From Escherichia coli (GTDB taxonomy: Bacteria; Pseudomonadota; Gammaproteobacteria; Enterobacterales; Enterobacteriaceae): DNA of 64,000 bases. Both the position numbers and the translations under genes were made by a program. Each line of letters opens with the position of its first letter. The first letter of the stretch is position 1. A model generated the notes under the pieces. The model saw only the letters and a list, made by a program, of their open reading frames with translations, did no database searches and was not told the origin of the DNA. The stretch lies in assembly GCF_003018115.1 (NCBI RefSeq), contig NZ_CP027457.1, one strand, 5' to 3'. Positions 2,459-26,954 of this stretch are shown here, one piece after another.

Positions 2459-3219
2459 GAGTTCCCCGCGCCAGCGGGGATAAACCGAAAATTGGGACGC
2501 TAACTCATGGGTCTGGGTAGAGTTCCCCGCGCCAGCGGGGATAAACCGGGAAAAACGCCTGTGGTTGGGGCTGAACCAGGGAGTTCCCCGCGCCAGCGGG
2601 GATAAACCGTCGGCGCGCTCTCTGTAGAGCGGTTGTGTGATGAGTTCCCCGCGCCAGCGGGGATAAACCGTCGTCGGGTCCGACAGGGGTCGGTTGTTCG
2701 CCGAGTTCCCCGCGCCAGCGGGGATAAACCGGCTTAATAAACGAGGAGAATACCGATGTTTTTAAGTTCCCCGCGCCAGCGGGGATAAACCGTTCTTTTA
2801 ATGGCGTCAGGCCCATTACAGAGCGAGTTCCCCGCGCCAGCGGGGATAAACCGTTTTGACGATTATTCTAAAAGTGAAAATAGCAGAGTTCCCCGCGCCA
2901 GCGGGGATAAACCGCACGCTGGAGTGACCGGGTGGCAGAGCATGACGAGTTCCCCGCGCCAGCGGGGATAAACCGCCATTTCATCATGAACGGCGGAAAT
3001 ATCGTGGGAGTTCCCCGCGCCAGCGGGGATAAACCGGTCAGTTCCCGGTTGATATATATGATGAGCATGAGTTCCCCGCGCCAGCGGGGATAAACCGCGC
3101 AATGGCGCGGCGATTGCTCTCGAGATCAAGTGTTCCCCGCGCCAGCGGGGATAAACCGGGTACAAAAGAGGCCCCATTCTGGCAGGGCTCGAGTTCCCCG
3201 CGCCAGTGGGGATAAACCA
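2459..3219 (+). CRISPR. Type I-E CRISPR array, 13 repeats and 12 spacers (queE-ygcE side)
   Basis: 29-bp repeat GAGTTCCCCGCGCCAGCGGGGATAAACCG at 2459, 2520, 2581, 2642, 2703, 2764, 2825, 2886, 2947, 3008, 3069, 3130, 3191 with exact 61-bp period and 32-bp unique spacers. Repeat 6 starts AAG, repeat 12 starts GTG, terminal repeat 13 is degenerate (..CCAGTGGGGATAAACCA). Confidence 0.97.
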
Positions 3220-18916: not shown

Positions 18917-19651
18917 ATGTCCAAACTCGATCTAAACGCCCTGAACGAACTGCCGAAGGTAGATCGCATTCTGGCGCTGGCGGAAACTAACGCCCAACTG
19001 GAAAAACTGGACGCTGAAGGCCGCGTAGCCTGGGCGCTGGATAATCTGCCCGGTGAATATGTGCTTTCTTCCAGCTTCGGCATTCAGGCGGCGGTGAGCC
19101 TGCATCTGGTGAATCAGATTCGCCCGGATATTCCAGTGATCCTCACCGATACCGGTTACTTGTTCCCGGAAACCTACCGCTTTATTGACGAGTTAACGGA
19201 CAAACTCAAGCTCAACCTGAAAGTGTACCGTGCTACCGAAAGCGCAGCCTGGCAGGAAGCACGCTACGGAAAACTGTGGGAGCAGGGCGTTGAAGGCATT
19301 GAAAAGTACAATGACATCAACAAAGTCGAACCGATGAACCGGGCGCTGAAAGAACTTAACGCGCAAACGTGGTTTGCTGGCCTGCGCCGCGAACAATCCG
19401 GCAGCCGCGCCAATTTACCGGTGCTGGCAATTCAGCGTGGCGTATTTAAAATGCTGCCGATTATCGACTGGGATAACCGAACGATATATCAGTATCTGCA
19501 AAAGCATGGCCTGAAATATCACCCATTATGGGACGAAGGATATTTATCGGTGGGCGATACCCATACAACCCGTAAATGGGAACCCGGCATGGCGGAAGAA
19601 GAAACGCGTTTCTTTGGCTTAAAAAGGGAATGTGGGTTACACGAAGGGTAA
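18917..19651 (+). CDS. cysH: Phosphoadenosine phosphosulfate (PAPS) reductase
   Basis: 244 aa from ATG 18917 (SD gagg; [12 protein letters not shown]...); ORF track start 18764 runs through the REP and is rejected. Confidence 0.93.
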
Positions 19652-19817
19652 ATATTGCCGGATAAATTAAACGCCTCTGTCAGAAATGATGGGGGCGTTT
19701 TTATTTTGCGAGCAGCATTCCTGATTTTAAACGTGAACGCCGCTGGAAGAATTATCAGGTATAGAATGGCGTCGGGTGCTTGAGGCTGTCTGGCGTTAAG
19801 CATTCGCGAGGTTCCAG

Positions 19818-19922
19818 ATGGACAAAAGCCCCAGGCGATATTTCTATCAACCTGAGGCTTACGTTCGAACCCAAACAATTCGAATGTTAGTCTCTTCTTT
19901 GCAGGGAGGCAAGACATGCTGA
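19818..19922 (+). CDS. mok-like upstream ORF (34 aa), translationally coupled to hok
   Basis: ATG 19818 with SD gagg 7 nt upstream; stop TGA overlaps the hok start (ATGCTGA). Confidence 0.35.
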
Positions 19923-20068
19923 CAAAATATGCCCTTGTGGCAATCATCGTACTGTGTTGTACAGTACTGGGATTCACGCTGATGGTAGGTGACTCGTTGT
20001 GTGAGTTGAGTATCAGAGAACGTGGTATGGAGTTTAAGGCAGTTCTCGCTTACGAATCGAAGAAGTAG
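19916..20068 (+). CDS. Hok/Gef-family type I toxin (50 aa membrane peptide)
   Basis: [50 protein letters not shown]; hydrophobic N-terminal helix plus the SLCE(I/L).(I/Y)R...EV.A..AYES.K signature of Hok proteins; SD ggagg 6 nt upstream; below the 60-aa cutoff of the ORF track. Confidence 0.8.
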
Positions 20069-20261
20069 CCACCACGCGGGGGTAAAACCCCGCGTACTGA
20101 ATTGTGATGGTTTGGTCTCCTGCACCCTTTTTTAAAATTTATATTTTTTATGTGAATATATAGTCTCTATTTATTATTATGAATTTCAAATGAAAATCAT
20201 TAATTTATTCATAATGTAAATGTTTTATTGGCTGATATATATCACAGATAATTTTTAAAAT

Positions 20262-22358
20262 ATGCGTAAATATCCTTTAAGTTTACTGAAGGATAAAAAT
20301 ATTGTGACTTTTTTTGATTTCTGGGGAAAAACCCGACGCGGCGAGAAAGACGGGGGCGACGACTATCACCTTCTTTGCTGGCATTCGCTGGATGTAGCCG
20401 CGATGGGCTATTTAATGGTTAAAAGAAATTGCTTCGGGCTGGCTGATTATTTTCGTCAATTAGGGATTTCTGACAAGGAACAGGCGGCTCAATTTTTCGC
20501 CTGGTTGCTGTGCTGGCACGATATTGGAAAATTTGCCCGCTCTTTTCAACAACTTTACCTGCCCCCTGAACTCAAGATTCAGGAAAGTGCCAGAAAAAAT
20601 TACGAAAAAATCTCTCATTCAACGCTGGGCTACTGGTTGTGGAATCATTATTTAAGTGAATGTCAGGAGTTACTTCCTTCATCTTCGCTCTCTCCGCGCA
20701 AACTTAGGCGAGTGATAGAAATGTGGATGCCCGTGACGACAGGGCATCATGGTCGGCCCCCTGATCGTATGGATGAATTGGATAATTTTCTGCCTGAAGA
20801 CAAAGCTGCAGCACGAGATTTTCTCCTTGAAATCAAACCACTGTTTCCGCTCATAGAGATCCCCGCATTCTGGGATGATGATGAGGGCATTGAACTTATA
20901 AAACACCTTTCCTGGTATATCTCTGCAACCGTCGTGCTCGCAGACTGGACGGGTTCGTCAACGCGATTTTTTCCACGCGTCGCACACCCAATGGATATTA
21001 AAGGTTACTGGCAGAAAACTTTAATTCAGGCTCAAAACGCCTTAACCGTCTTTCCTCTAAAAGCAAAAGTCGCGCCTTTCAACGGAATTAATACGCTGTT
21101 TCCTTTTATTGAGAATCCGACACCGTTACAGCAAAAGGTGCTGGATCTGGATATCAGCCAGCAAGGACCGCAGTTATTTATTCTGGAAGATGTGACTGGC
21201 GCAGGTAAAACAGAAGCGGCGCTTATCCTGGCGCACAGGTTGATAGCTGCGGGGAAAGCTCAGGGGCTGTTTTTTGGTCTGCCAACAATGGCAACGGCCA
21301 ATGCCATGTACGATCGGCTGGTCAAAACCTGGCTTGCTTTCTATTCGCCAGAATCCCGCCCCAGCCTGGTGCTGGCACATAGTGCCCGCACATTAATGGA
21401 CCGCTTTAATGAATCACTCTGGTCTGGTGATTTAGTCGGGTCAGAAGAACCGGATGAACAAACGTTCAGTCAGGGATGTGCGGCCTGGTTTGCCGACAGT
21501 AACAAGAAGGCGTTGCTGGCTGAAATTGGCGTCGGCACGCTGGATCAGGCGATAATGGCGGTGATGCCGTTCAAACATAATAATCTGCGGCTTCTGGGGC
21601 TGAGTAACAAAATCCTGCTGGCTGATGAGATCCACGCCTGTGACGCTTACATGTCGTGCATTCTTGAAGGGTTGATCGAGCGGCAGGCGCGTGGCGGAAA
21701 CAGCGTTATTTTGCTTTCTGCCACGTTATCTCAACAGCAGCGCGACAAACTCGTCGCTGCCTTTGCGCGGGGTACAGAGGGCCAGCAAGAAGCTCCGTTC
21801 CTGGAAAAGGATGATTACCCCTGGCTGACGCATGTCACGAAATCCGATGTGAACTCACACCGGGTAGCGACGCGCAAAGACGTTGAGCGTAGCGTCAGCG
21901 TGGGTTGGCTTCATAGTGAACAAGAGTGTATTGCGCGTATCGAATCGGCGGTAAGTCAGGGGAAATGCATCGCCTGGATCCGGAATTCTGTCGATGACGC
22001 TATTAAGGTTCATCGTCAGCTGCTTGCCCGCGGCGTCATTCCTGCTTCCAGCCTTTCACTTTTTCATAGCCGCTTTGCTTTTAGCGATCGCCAGCGAATT
22101 GAAACGGAAACGCTGGCACGCTTTGGTAAATATTGTAGTTTACAGAGAGCGTCGCAAGTCATTGTTTGTACACAAGTAATTGAGCAAAGCGTGGATATTG
22201 ACCTGGACGAAATGATCTCCGACCTGGCCCCTGTTGATTTGCTGATTCAGCGAGCAGGACGATTACAGCGGCATATCCGCGATATTAATGGTCAGTTAAA
22301 GCGTGACGTGTTCCCCGCGCCAGCGGGGATAAACCGGGTACACGGATATTCTGTCTAA
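20262..22358 (+). pseudogene. cas3: cas3 (type I-E HD nuclease / DExH helicase), 3'-truncated and fused to CRISPR repeat 1
   Basis: HD-domain motifs (CWHSLDVAA, HDIGKF), Walker A DVTGAGKTEAA, DEAH-type LADEIH; reading frame runs into the first repeat at 22308 (residues VFPAPAGINR encoded by repeat) and stops in spacer 1; about 680 aa of Cas3 sequence against about 890 expected. Confidence 0.85.
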
Positions 22359-22702
22359 AAGTTAACTAGTGTTCCCCGCGCCAGCGGGGATAAACCGACT
22401 GATAACGCCGGAGCCTTCTTTTTCAGCAAGTGTTCCCCGCGCCAGCGGGGATAAACCGAGGTTGACGTTGATTTTGTTCGTTATGTTGCCGTGTTCCCCG
22501 CGCCAGCGGGGATAAACCGACCTCGACAATGACACGGGCGCGAAAACAATCGTGTTCCCCGCGCCAGCGGGGATAAACCGTCGGTGGCTGGATTGAAAAA
22601 GAAGATAATCTGGTGTTCCCCGCGTCAGCGGGGATAAACCGGGCGCACTGGATGCGATGATGGATATCACTTAGAATTCCCCGCCCCTGCGGTAGAACTC
22701 CC
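22308..22702 (+). CRISPR. Type I-E CRISPR array, 6 intact repeats plus 1 degenerate terminal repeat, 6 spacers; no leader
   Basis: Repeat GTGTTCCCCGCGCCAGCGGGGATAAACCG at 22308, 22369, 22430, 22491, 22552, 22613 (61-bp period, 32-bp spacers); repeat 6 carries cgcgTcag; degenerate copy gaattccccgcccctgcggtagaactc at 22674-22702. Confidence 0.95.
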
Positions 22703-22722: not shown

Positions 22723-23760
22723 TCAAGACGCCTTCGCCAGCTCCTTCACCAGCGGTAGCATTATCCGCATAACATCACGGCAGCGACGTTCTATTCTTCC
22801 AGGAAGTGCCTTATCAATATGTTGTTGATTATCCAGTCTTACGTCATGCCAGCTATTTCCCGCCGGGAAGGCAGGTGTTTTTGCGCGTTGCTGATAACCA
22901 TCCTTATTCCCAAGATTCCAGTTAGTCGCTTCCACCGAAAGTACAGCAATGCCCGCTTTGTCGAATATTTCTGCGTCATTACAACACCCAGTGCCTTTCG
23001 GATAATTTTTATTCAAACCCGGATTGGTCGTTGCGGCTATTCCGTGACTGCGCGCAATTGCCAGCGCCCTGTCGCGCGTTAATTTCCTTACTGCTTCAGG
23101 GGTTTTTACACCGCTGTTGAAATACAATTTATCGCCAACAATTAAGTTATCGAGATTAATCACCAGCAGCGTATTTTTCTTTTCGGTGTCACTCATCCGC
23201 TTGAGTAAATTCTCAGCGCCTAATTTCCCTTCCTCTTCGCCGCTGGTCGCCACAAATCGAATACCATACTCGGTAGGCGTATTTTTCAGGCGTTCTGCCA
23301 ATTCCAGCATGACACCTAAACCTGCGGCGTTATCATCCATTCCTTGTAACGTCAGCCCGCCGAGATTGGCATCGGCGTCAGCATCGCTCAGCGGGGCGTA
23401 AGTATCCAGATGCGCCATAATGATGATCTGCTGCGGCGCTTTGCCTTCATGAGCGGCAATCACCGTACTTCCTGTCACGTTATGCCAGTTCTTGCGATTA
23501 TCGCGGGCGGTATAAATATACCGACTATTAAATGTCCGAATATCACTGCGATAACCCATTTGCTGAAACTGTTGGCGAATATAATCGGCAGATAACATTT
23601 CTGCAGGAGTTCCGGTCATGCGTCCCGGAAAGAAAGTAGCAATATGTCGTGCCTGAGTATTAGCAAAATCGCCAGGTTTAGGTGACGAGGCGTGTACGGG
23701 GAGAATAAAGCATACGCCGAGCGCCAGGGCAGCGGTACGGTGGCGCAATGCGGAAAACAT
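22723..23760 (-). CDS. iap: Alkaline phosphatase isozyme conversion aminopeptidase
   Basis: 345 aa with N-terminal signal peptide; synteny next to CRISPR and cysD. Confidence 0.88.
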   Translation of the reverse strand: MFSALRHRTAALALGVCFILPVHASSPKPGDFANTQARHIATFFPGRMTGTPAEMLSADYIRQQFQQMGYRSDIRTFNSRYIYTARDNRKNWHNVTGSTVIAAHEGKAPQQIIIMAHLDTYAPLSDADADANLGGLTLQGMDDNAAGLGVMLELAERLKNTPTEYGIRFVATSGEEEGKLGAENLLKRMSDTEKKNTLLVINLDNLIVGDKLYFNSGVKTPEAVRKLTRDRALAIARSHGIAATTNPGLNKNYPKGTGCCNDAEIFDKAGIAVLSVEATNWNLGNKDGYQQRAKTPAFPAGNSWHDVRLDNQQHIDKALPGRIERRCRDVMRIMLPLVKELAKAS

Positions 23761-24011: not shown

Positions 24012-24920
24012 ATGGATCAAATACGACTTACTCACCTGCGGCAACTGGAGGCGGAAAGCATCCACATTATTCGCGAGGTGGCGGCAGAATTCTCAAATCC
24101 GGTGATGCTCTACTCTATCGGTAAAGATTCCAGCGTCATGCTGCATCTGGCGCGCAAGGCGTTTTATCCAGGTACGCTGCCTTTCCCGTTGCTGCATGTC
24201 GATACCGGCTGGAAATTCCGCGAGATGTATGAGTTCCGCGATCGTACGGCGAAAGCCTACGGCTGCGAGCTGCTGGTGCATAAAAATCCGGAAGGCGTGG
24301 CGATGGGGATTAATCCATTCGTGCACGGCAGCGCGAAACATACCGATATTATGAAAACTGAAGGCCTGAAGCAGGCGCTGAATAAATACGGTTTTGATGC
24401 CGCCTTCGGTGGTGCGCGCCGCGACGAAGAGAAATCCCGTGCTAAAGAGCGTATCTACTCTTTCCGTGATCGCTTCCATCGCTGGGACCCGAAAAATCAG
24501 CGCCCGGAGCTGTGGCACAACTATAACGGGCAGATTAACAAAGGCGAAAGCATCCGCGTTTTCCCGCTCTCTAACTGGACCGAGCAGGATATCTGGCAAT
24601 ACATCTGGCTGGAAAATATCGACATTGTGCCGTTGTATCTCGCTGCGGAACGTCCGGTTCTGGAACGCGACGGTATGTTGATGATGATTGATGACAACCG
24701 TATCGACCTGCAACCGGGCGAAGTGATTAAAAAACGGATGGTGCGTTTCCGTACGCTGGGCTGCTGGCCGCTGACCGGTGCGGTGGAGTCAAATGCACAA
24801 ACACTGCCGGAGATCATCGAAGAGATGCTGGTTTCTACCACCAGTGAACGTCAGGGCCGCGTGATTGACCGCGACCAGGCGGGGTCTATGGAGCTGAAAA
24901 AACGTCAGGGGTATTTTTAA
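24012..24920 (+). CDS. cysD: Sulfate adenylyltransferase subunit 2
   Basis: 302 aa; PAPS-reductase-like fold; cysD-cysN-cysC order. Confidence 0.95.
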
Positions 24921-24921
24921 G

Positions 24922-26349
24922 ATGAACACCGCACTTGCACAACAAATCGCCAATGAAGGCGGCGTCGAAGCCTGGATGATTGCGCAACAACATAAAAGCC
25001 TGCTGCGTTTTCTGACCTGTGGTAGCGTCGATGACGGCAAAAGTACCCTGATTGGTCGCCTGCTGCACGATACCCGCCAAATCTACGAAGATCAGCTCTC
25101 ATCGCTGCATAACGACAGTAAGCGTCACGGCACCCAGGGCGAAAAACTGGATCTGGCTCTGCTGGTGGACGGCCTGCAAGCTGAGCGCGAACAGGGCATC
25201 ACTATTGATGTGGCCTACCGCTATTTCTCTACCGAGAAGCGTAAATTTATTATCGCCGACACCCCCGGGCACGAGCAGTATACCCGCAATATGGCGACCG
25301 GCGCCTCAACGTGTGAGCTGGCGATCTTACTGATCGATGCCCGTAAAGGCGTGCTCGATCAAACCCGTCGTCACAGTTTTATCTCCACGCTGCTGGGGAT
25401 CAAACATCTGGTCGTAGCGATCAACAAAATGGATCTGGTGGATTACAGTGAAGAGACGTTCACACGTATTCGTGAAGATTATCTGACTTTTGCCGGGCAA
25501 CTGCCGGGGAATCTGGATATCCGCTTTGTGCCGCTCTCCGCACTGGAAGGTGACAACGTGGCTTCACAAAGTGAAAGTATGCCGTGGTACAGCGGTCCTA
25601 CACTGCTCGAAGTGCTGGAAACCGTGGAGATCCAGCGAGTGGTGGATGCTCAGCCAATGCGCTTCCCGGTGCAGTACGTTAACCGCCCGAATCTCGATTT
25701 TCGTGGCTACGCCGGAACGCTGGCATCCGGTCGCGTGGAAGTCGGGCAACGTGTCAAAGTGCTGCCCTCTGGTGTGGAATCAAACGTCGCGCGGATCGTG
25801 ACTTTTGATGGTGATCGCGAAGAAGCCTTTGCCGGAGAAGCGATCACCCTGGTGCTGACGGATGAGATCGACATCAGCCGTGGCGATCTGCTGCTGGCGG
25901 CAGACGAAGCGTTACCGGCGGTGCAGAGCGCGTCGGTGGATGTGGTATGGATGGCGGAACAGCCGCTTTCTCCAGGGCAGAGTTACGACATCAAAATTGC
26001 CGGTAAGAAGACGCGCGCGCGTGTTGATGGCATTCGCTATCAGGTTGATATTAATAACCTTACCCAGCGTGAAGTTGAAAACCTGCCACTGAATGGGATC
26101 GGCCTCGTGGATCTCACTTTTGACGAGCCGCTGGTGTTAGATCGTTATCAACAAAATCCGGTGACGGGTGGGCTGATTTTTATCGATCGCCTGAGCAATG
26201 TGACCGTGGGTGCCGGTATGGTGCACGAGCCAGTTAGCCAGGCAACTGCTGCGCCATCTGAATTCAGTGCATTCGAACTGGAATTGAATGCTCTGGTTCG
26301 TCGCCACTTTCCGCACTGGGGCGCGCGCGATTTGCTGGGGGATAAATAA
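24922..26349 (+). CDS. cysN: Sulfate adenylyltransferase subunit 1 (GTPase)
   Basis: 475 aa; GTP-binding motifs [18 protein letters not shown]. Confidence 0.95.
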
Positions 26350-26954
26350 TGGCGCTGCATGACGAAAACGTCGTCTGGCATAGCCATCCGGTCACTGTGC
26401 AACAACGCGAGCTACACCACGGTCATCGTGGTGTAGTGCTGTGGTTTACCGGCCTCTCCGGGTCCGGTAAATCAACGGTCGCCGGGGCGCTGGAGGAGGC
26501 GTTACATAAACTCGGCGTCAGTACGTATCTGCTGGATGGCGATAATGTTCGCCACGGATTATGCAGCGATCTCGGTTTTAGCGATGCCGATCGTAAAGAG
26601 AATATCCGTCGCGTCGGTGAAGTGGCGAATTTGATGGTTGAAGCCGGACTGGTAGTGCTGACCGCATTTATCTCGCCACACCGCGCCGAACGCCAGATGG
26701 TTCGCGAACGCGTAGGAGAAGGGCGCTTTATCGAAGTGTTTGTCGATACGCCGCTGGCGATTTGCGAAGCCCGCGATCCAAAAGGCTTATATAAGAAAGC
26801 GCGTGCCGGTGAACTGCGCAACTTTACGGGAATAGATTCTGTTTACGAAGCGCCTGAATCGGCAGAAATTCATCTCAATGGTGAACAATTAGTAACAAAT
26901 TTGGTACAGCAATTATTAGATCTGTTGAGACAGAACGATATTATCAGATCCTGA
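26349..26954 (+). CDS. cysC: Adenylyl-sulfate (APS) kinase
   Basis: 201 aa; P-loop GLSGSGKST. Confidence 0.95.

Follow-up and report, generated by a model that had tools for sequence, protein, structure and literature searches.

A probable, structurally intact hokX/hokG-sokX toxin-antitoxin module beside cysH in Escherichia coli

The interval between cysH and cas3 in the 64-kb stretch of Escherichia coli DNA analysed here (from contig NZ_CP027457.1; this whole stretch is called the window below) contains a 50-codon open reading frame, and with it arises the question whether this interval encodes a toxin, how such a toxin would be kept in check, and whether the locus is new. A first reading of the letters (the sequence-only reading) took the ORF for an intact Hok/Gef-type toxin gene that had been missed by an ORF track limited to frames of 60 amino acids or more. 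The best explanation of the locus is, with high confidence, the chromosomal hokX/hokG-sokX module, i.e. a type I toxin-antitoxin system of the hok/sok type that is structurally intact in this strain, and the presence of this module next to cysH is typical of most E. coli. The hok gene between cysH and cas3 is thus real, but it was catalogued earlier and is an ordinary, known feature. Hence, the novelty implied by the words "missed by the ORF track" falls away, as the gene is part of the RefSeq annotation, has a Swiss-Prot name and appears in several papers. What the case does illustrate is that an ORF cut-off of 60 amino acids hides a real and widespread toxin gene.

The hok toxin ORF (HokX/HokG) lies at 19916-20068 on the plus strand, starts with ATG and encodes 50 amino acids. 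Its Shine-Dalgarno (SD) sequence GGGAGG (19904-19909, plus strand) is located 6 nt 5' of the ATG. In our comparative alignment, which comprises 39 distinct homologous mRNAs from 8 genera, the GGAGG core (columns G132-G136) is invariant and so is the hok start. The peptide matches the Pfam family PF01848 (HOK_GEF) with E=6.3e-10, hereby residues 5-46 align to model positions 1-42 of 42. Together with a match of 113 bits to the Rfam family RF01794 (see below), this confirms the proposed Hok/Gef-type ORF behind a strong SD. A transmembrane helix extends over approximately residues 6-24, where the 19-residue Kyte-Doolittle mean reaches its peak of 2.76, and the conserved SLCE motif is part of a polar C-terminal segment. 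Alignment to the Hok family, which had been suggested as a check, yields identities of 78% to K-12 HokE, 39% to HokC, 33% to HokB and about 42% to plasmid Hok proteins. Residues C14, L28, E30, E39 and A45 are invariant between the window Hok, HokE, HokC, HokB and a Klebsiella homologue, while the cysteine of the LCE motif (C29) is common to all of these except HokB, which has a Tyr at this position. Two NCBIfam cut-offs are missed by the peptide, namely those of NF007290 (HokA equivalog; 53 bits compared to 89) and NF007279 (Hok family subfamily; 39.5 bits compared to 73). The former result implies that the protein is not HokA.

Since K-12 annotates an sRNA alone in this interval and the ORF is short, the 50 codons might be a chance ORF in an sRNA region, in which only the Sok-like RNA is functional, as in K-12. 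The comparative data speak against this. A pattern scan with one genome per species detected 34 copies of hokE/hokG-type loci in other species, distributed over Escherichia, Klebsiella, Kluyvera, Pseudocitrobacter, Atlantibacter, Pseudescherichia, Enterobacter and Pluralibacter, and an intact, in-frame 50-codon hok is kept in 32 of them. The dN/dS ratio of the hok ORF ranges from 0 to 0.3 against all 38 other distinct homologues, well below 1, and the O157 allele differs by 6 synonymous and 0 nonsynonymous substitutions. Judged from these sequence comparisons, the peptide is under clear purifying selection across the 8 genera. Moreover, K-12 is devoid of the ORF through a deletion that starts at the ATG itself. 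Taken together with the Pfam and Rfam matches, the intact copies and the dN/dS values effectively refute a chance ORF, to which we assign next to no probability.

How widespread the gene is becomes apparent from existing records. The exact 50-aa peptide is Swiss-Prot HOKG_ECO57 ("Putative protein HokG") as well as RefSeq WP_000956458.1, and in a protein collection the identical peptide is found on at least 1000 contigs, also under the name "Hok/Gef family protein". With this name PGAP calls the gene directly 3' of cysH in many RefSeq E. coli genomes, either as WP_000956458.1 or as WP_000956460.1, the Phe15 version of the peptide; the next gene 3' of hok in these genomes is cas3, iap or an IS. 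Given the identical peptide and the position just 3' of cysH, the hokX/hokG-sokX modules of other E. coli represent the same locus as that of the window and not mere relatives, although E. coli B and CE10 carry Phe15 (WP_000956460.1) where the window has Cys15. The hok ORF and its 3'UTR are present in 4220 of 5426 complete E. coli genomes, hok being lost in 22%. Among 40 evenly spaced carriers that were sampled, 32 are full length, 7 end at window position 20090 and 1 is partial. A search for the locus in plasmid DNA returned mostly mislabelled chromosomes and hokE paralogues. The 4.9-Mb PLSDB "plasmid" NZ_CP141089.1, which has hok at 3,219,916, is distinct from the window DNA, with SNPs scattered along the alignment and complete divergence past 20135. 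The pair hokX/sokX is listed in TADB and was among the toxin-antitoxin genes screened in PMC11598369. According to PMC7232551, the cysH-iap region can contain a homologue of hokX of E. coli B; the E. coli B gene is inactivated by insertion, and NRG857c has an intact copy. Among 237 urological (UPEC) isolates, 90% possess hok and sokX beside cysH and the remainder sokX alone, as in K-12 (PMC12736100). Finally, a "hok sok system" marks CRISPR-I arrangements and is missing only with the K-12-type cas-E2 variant (PMC3903273).

The sequence-only reading had supposed that K-12 annotates nothing but sokX here. In fact, sokX (b4701) is the only gene annotated between cysH and cas3 of K-12 MG1655, and comparison of the two intervals corroborates that K-12 keeps sokX alone. 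In an alignment of eight alleles, K-12 and the window run collinearly from cysH over the leader and the Sok gene past the hok SD; the last shared position is the G of the hok start codon (19918), beyond which the two sequences diverge completely. A deletion beginning at this start codon thus explains the orphan sokX of K-12. E. coli B has suffered a different lesion, as an IS421 insertion after the position that corresponds to window 20090 interrupts the 3' hairpin and thereby eliminates the fold-back-inhibition (fbi) element discussed below; K-12 hokE carries IS186 at the equivalent hairpin. Compared to the E. coli B and K-12 copies, the window locus is uninterrupted.

The full-length hok (hokX/hokG) mRNA is predicted to extend from 19774 to 20133 on the plus strand (approximately 355-360 nt). 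Hereby, we infer the 5' end from position 1 of the Rfam model and from the motif GGGUGC, which is invariant in the 39 homologues, and the 3' end from a T-run. The leader (19774-19931) matches the full model (1-157) of Rfam RF01794, named "sok", with 113 bits (gathering score 59) and E=2e-26, and RF01794 is the only Rfam family that reaches threshold within the whole 64-kb window. Since hok and this match share the same strand, the model represents the leader of the mRNA, which Sok overlaps, and not Sok itself. A putative -10 box of the hok promoter, TAGAAT, can be read at 19762-19767 (plus strand), 6 nt 5' of Rfam model position 1 and with a poor -35 region; ATAGAAT is conserved among E. coli alleles, and Klebsiella has GTAGAAT. 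Further upstream, the last position of cysH is 19651, and its terminator hairpin occupies 19669-19700. Two additional Rfam candidates at 19609-19709, ctRNA_p42d (24.9 bits) and Spot_42 (19.7 bits), score far below their gathering scores and coincide with this cysH terminator hairpin; they were hence dismissed as separate sRNAs.

For the antisense RNA, a minus-strand transcript over 19790-19870 had been guessed. Homology to sokX now places Sok close to this range, at the complement of 19818-19876: the predicted 59-nt RNA (SokX, minus strand) is identical to K-12 sokX (b4701) at 56 of 59 positions and occupies the same site. It is composed of a 5' tail, GUUUGGGUUCGAACGUAAG, which is complementary to the loop and the 3' arm of the target hairpin described below, a terminator-like hairpin and the U-tail CUUUUGU, an architecture common to the annotated SokB, SokC and SokE RNAs. 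Its predicted fold has a free energy of -24.7 kcal/mol (z=-4.4). The putative Sok promoter (19884-19911, minus strand) consists of the -35 box TTGCCT (complement of 19906-19911), a 17-nt spacer and the -10 box TAACAT (complement of 19884-19889), with a putative start at 19876, 7 nt downstream of the -10 box. The -35 box overlaps the hok SD, the overlapping columns being invariant in the 39 loci, and the promoter region is identical in K-12 (44 nt upstream of the annotated sokX). In a consensus promoter scan with a threshold of 9 out of 12 matches neither the hok nor the Sok promoter was called, the latter reaching 8 of 12; the assignments are therefore based on the location of the boxes, their conservation and the identical sequence 5' of sokX in K-12.

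For the hok mRNA of plasmid R1, a scheme of fold-back inhibition and subsequent refolding was established by the Gerdes laboratory in the 1990s. The predicted folds of the full-length and truncated RNAs of the window locus match this scheme of fbi lock and refolding. A tac-like 5' element, GGGUGC..GAGGCU (19774-19787, plus strand), is complementary to the fbi element GGUCUC..GCACCC (20114-20127, plus strand), which is followed by the T-run at 20128-20133; the stretch 20114-20133 thus reads GGUCUCCUGCACCC and then the T-run. In the minimum free energy (MFE) fold of the full-length RNA (19774-20133; -129.8 kcal/mol, z=-3.8, 0 of 100 shuffled sequences being as good), positions 19774-19779 pair with 20122-20127 and 19782-19787 with 20114-20119. 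The 5'-3' pairing recurs in the centroid fold, in line with the fold-back that the sequence-only reading had suspected between the two ends. At the same time, 20098-20113 is predicted to sequester the stretch to which the Sok 5' end is complementary. RNAs that end at 20094 or 20098, as well as nascent 5' fragments, are predicted to fold differently, with a local 5' hairpin (19774-19783 paired with 19796-19805) and a putative Sok-target hairpin (19854-19894, plus strand; local fold -17.8 kcal/mol) that is seen in the 3'-truncated and nascent folds only and is absent from the full-length fold. The loop of the latter (19870-19878, CCCAAACAA) shows complementarity to the Sok 5' terminus. The hok SD is base-paired in both the full-length and the truncated fold. 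Between the ORF and the fbi element, a GC-rich stem-loop with 8 bp and the loop GUAAAA (20074-20095, plus strand) presumably stops 3' exonucleolytic trimming. It is also a hot spot for IS186 and IS421, and an IS is inserted in this hairpin in 7 of the 40 evenly sampled carriers, i.e. in about one sixth.

Across the 39 loci, 86% of the cells of the 5'-3' helix are paired. For the 3' hairpin the value is 98.7%, with one compensatory pair (CG/UA). The whole tested structure (5'-3' helix and 3' hairpin) reaches 90.7% compared to 31-61% when the partners are slid by 1-3 columns, figures to be read with the fact that the structure was derived from the window sequence itself and that its support consists mostly of conservation and one-sided changes, with only a single compensatory pair. 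Variation within the 5'-3' helix is mostly GC/GU exchange, one position showing CG/UA/UG, and natural variants of the fbi helix preserve pairing in the O157 (GC to GU), CE10 (GU to GC) and BH100 (UG to CG) alleles. The comparative data thus support the predicted 5'-3' pairing.

In addition to hok, the sequence-only reading had described a 34-codon ORF with its own SD that ends in an ATGCTGA overlap with the hok start, "as mok does". The ORF itself (19818-19922, plus strand), its SD (GAGG at 19808-19811, 6 nt 5' of the ATG) and the overlap are present; its TGA (19920-19922) overlaps hok codons 2-3. The analogy to mok is poorly supported. In K-12, mokB and mokC belong to modules of the same family, hokB/sokB and hokC(gef)/sokC, with Sok RNAs of 57-59 nt and the same hairpin motif, and start about 57 nt before hok, under the 5' end of Sok; mokB ends inside hokB and mokC runs in frame through hokC. 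In contrast, the mok-like ORF of the window starts 98 nt 5' of hok, where Sok has its 3' end, and terminates at the third codon of hok. Moreover, the mok-like ATG is present in 12 and absent in 27 of the 39 distinct loci, and in 9 of the 12 the ORF stops 25-77 nt short of hok, owing to stop codons or to insertions or deletions of one base within the Sok-target loop, which is variable. It reaches the hok start in only three of the 39 loci (window, SC418 and CE10). In the B2 strain BH100, which has the identical Hok peptide, ACG replaces the mok-like ATG, and the O157 allele carries a premature TAG in the ORF. A search of NCBIfam with the mok-like peptide gave no match, and the exact peptide is absent from a collection of 15 billion proteins. 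Given that so few homologous loci retain an ORF that extends to hok, translational coupling through this lineage-specific ORF of doubtful function appears doubtful, and textbook mok coupling is not conserved within the hokE/hokG subfamily. A 12-codon mini-ORF at 19884-19922 was considered as the "real mok" and rejected: it is conserved in most hokG-type loci but has no SD, and its conservation may be due to the hok SD and the -10 box of the Sok promoter, both of which it overlaps. Judged by the sequence comparison, hok of this subfamily is no less likely to be translated directly from its own SD than by coupling through mok.

The closest paralogue, hokE/sokE of K-12 in the ybdK-entD region (79-81% DNA identity besides the 78% at the peptide level), shares with the window locus the Sok hairpin core, the UACG/Y46 site discussed below and the GC-rich 3' hairpin, which IS186 has hit in K-12. 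It differs by its other chromosomal site, by a 5'-3' pairing through GGUGCC/GGCACC and by a mok-type ORF whose start is shifted by 5 nt and which, where intact, runs 89 nt into hok. The plasmid R1 hok/sok system (parB) and the plasmid Hok/SrnB/Flm group are members of the same family, PF01848. Like R1 hok/sok, the window locus has a predicted fbi lock, predicted 3'-end-dependent refolding and a predicted Sok RNA, about 60 nt long, whose 5' tail is single-stranded. Unlike R1 hok/sok, it is chromosomal with no plasmid to stabilise, its mok is not conserved and its hok SD is strong and invariant.

By homology to R1 hok/sok, the following mechanism can be proposed. A weak promoter would give rise to a hok mRNA of about 355 nt (19774 to approximately 20130), the 5' end of which would be locked onto the 3' fbi element so that the full-length RNA would neither be translated nor bound by Sok. 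Slow 3' processing, i.e. trimming back to the GC hairpin at 20074-20095, would then remove the fbi element, and the trimmed RNA would refold into the local 5' hairpin and the hairpin 19854-19894, the loop of which would be open to pairing with the Sok 5' end. The 59-nt Sok RNA, transcribed from a promoter of its own that overlaps the hok SD, would pair with the leader and block expression, presumably via cleavage of the duplex in an RNase III step. Once Sok levels fall, the 50-aa Hok would be translated and would exert its putative toxicity by inserting into the inner membrane and depolarising the cell. Hok translation may start from its own conserved SD instead of through mok. Since the mok ORF of the R1 model is not conserved in the subfamily, the R1 mechanism may not transfer in full to this locus.

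Is the hok mRNA made at all? Evidence from natural isolates comes from a study of A-to-I editing in UPEC (PMC13017025), in which "hokG" is edited in all ten isolates at levels of 10-37%. The supplement of that study gives the site as GUUCUCGCUUACGAAUCGAAG, annotated as WP_000956458.1 c.137A>G p.Y46C, with a coverage of 1270 reads in one isolate. This sequence is identical to window 20041-20061 (plus strand), a hairpin with a UACG motif in which A20052 corresponds to the reported TadA editing site that converts Tyr46 to Cys, and the validation primers of the study match window 19918-19937 and 20058-20077. The UACG motif is invariant in 39 of 39 loci and sits in a 9-nt loop of the predicted folds. 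As the hokG transcript was sequenced and found to be edited in UPEC, the sense mRNA of this allele is expressed in natural isolates.

These data bear on the alternative that the locus is a sequence-intact but silent, decaying relic from which no toxin is made, as for the K-12 hok loci, and which is kept by linkage only. Several observations would fit such decay: most homologues either lack the mok-like ORF or carry a disrupted version of it, both promoters are sub-consensus, the 3' hairpin is interrupted by an IS in about one sixth of the carriers, and hok has been lost from 22% of the genomes. Furthermore, a passage in PMC7232551 states, citing Pedersen & Gerdes 1999, that all five K-12 hok loci are non-functional. 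A silent relic would however hardly be expected to show clear purifying selection on its peptide across 8 genera (dN/dS 0-0.3), an invariant hok SD and start and a maintained 5'-3' pairing, nor an mRNA sequenced at good depth in clinical isolates (the 1270 reads at the editing site). We therefore consider the relic unlikely, and return to the intact hokX/hokG-sokX module as the preferred reading. For this module and its relatives, we tentatively suggest that the hokE/hokG(X) subfamily could be mok-independent: Hok would be translated from its own invariant GGAGG after refolding, Sok would act via duplex-triggered decay or structure only instead of blocking mok, and TadA editing of the invariant UACG (Tyr46 to Cys) would tune the activity of the toxin. 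This suggestion is a possibility to which we give rather less than even weight; if true, it would describe a mechanistic variant of the R1 paradigm and not a new kind of system.

Another question is raised by the gene 3' of hok, which the sequence-only reading had taken as plain cas3. The ORF at 20262-22358 is instead a truncated cas3 remnant that runs into six CRISPR repeats (22308-22641), to which it is fused from 22308 onwards. The repeats are followed by iap (22723-23760, minus strand) and by three ORFs (24012-26954), which we take to be cysD, cysN and cysC, also in view of the cysD annotation beside iap elsewhere. The window contains neither casA-E nor cas1 or cas2. CreTA is the name of RNA toxin-antitoxin pairs by which cas genes are guarded, and the hok/sok module could similarly be envisaged to secure the neighbouring type I-E CRISPR-Cas locus as an addiction or safeguard element, as hok is located directly 5' of cas3 in strains whose cas genes are of the E1 variant. 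In line with this, its presence correlates with the cas/leader variant (PMC3903273). This role is nevertheless rejected as highly improbable, since hok and cas genes occur independently of each other: the same hok allele is found in a cysH-hok-iap arrangement in strains without cas genes, including B2 strains; hok is intact in the window although casA-E, cas1 and cas2 are missing and cas3 is truncated; and K-12 has complete cas genes without hok. In addition, the Klebsiella homologue adjoins mutS, and Sok shows no obvious link to Cascade. The truncated-cas3 arrangement itself occurs in other E. coli as well, the closest relatives being O169:H41 strains.

None of the 39 aligned hokE/hokG-type loci departs from the UACG at the Tyr46 codon of hok (19916-20068, plus strand), which lies in the 9-nt loop of a hairpin (20041-20061), and among these loci the invariance extends to the surrounding synonymous positions. 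Within this motif, the A at 20052 is the position for which A-to-I editing by TadA (Y46C) has been published in hokG and in its paralogue hokE.

Further downstream, the hok 3' hairpin (GGGGG-N-CCCC; 20074-20095) is a repeated target of IS186/IS421, with the insertion point after position 20090. In an evenly spaced sample of hokX carriers the hairpin is interrupted by an IS in 7 of 40, and in every case of IS186/IS421 insertion into this hairpin the fold-back inhibition element fbi (20114-20127) is lost. The hokX of E. coli B carries an IS in the 3' hairpin, and K-12 hokE has one at the equivalent hairpin. Coordinates of such insertions in comparison loci are L008, 3122-4234; L010, 1508-2852; and L013, from 726 onwards.

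The RF01794 ("sok antitoxin") match of Rfam at 19774-19931 lies on the hok-sense strand: it marks the leader of the mRNA, while Sok is encoded on the other strand. Annotations based on RF01794, such as "sok_15/sokX" in an EDL933 study, place the antitoxin on the wrong strand. A weak, sub-threshold Rfam match, ctRNA_p42d at the cysH terminator hairpin (19669-19709), scores 24.9 bits, where the gathering score is 50, and most likely reflects a generic likeness to terminators.

Upstream of hok, a putative 12-codon mini-ORF (19884-19922), which has no SD, ends at the same TGA, overlapping the start of hok, as the mok-like ORF. It coincides with the -10 box of Sok and with the SD of hok, and is kept in most hokG-type loci across genera.

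Several genomes of Escherichia (E. coli, E. whittamii and Escherichia sp.; comparison loci L020, 4171-4696; L030, 3021-3546; L038, 8402-8926; L012, 498-1078) carry tandem hokE-type duplicates spaced about 500 bp apart. Klebsiella spallanzanii (L036) holds two copies 1.2 kb apart.

Next to the hok locus, the cas3 ORF is truncated (698 aa) and runs without a break into a six-repeat CRISPR array (22308-22641; GTGTTCCCCGCGCCAGCGGGGATAAACCG, 61-bp period), which is followed by iap (22723-23760, minus strand). In this region (20262-22700) casA-E, cas1 and cas2 are missing. Other E. coli have the same layout; O169:H41 strains show a 100% match but contain one additional IS421. Some 17 kb upstream of the hok locus there is a second type I-E CRISPR array (2459-3219; 13 repeats, GAGTTCCCCGCGCCAGCGGGGATAAACCG, 61-bp period).

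The chromosomal hok locus is also present in the PLSDB "plasmids" NZ_CP141089.1, NZ_OL790696.1, NZ_CP134663.1 and CP125156.1; these multi-megabase records (4.8-5.4 Mb) are evidently chromosomes filed as plasmids. Finally, hokX is found in RefSeq record NZ_CP026085.1, labelled "DH5alpha", which is unexpected in a K-12 derivative.
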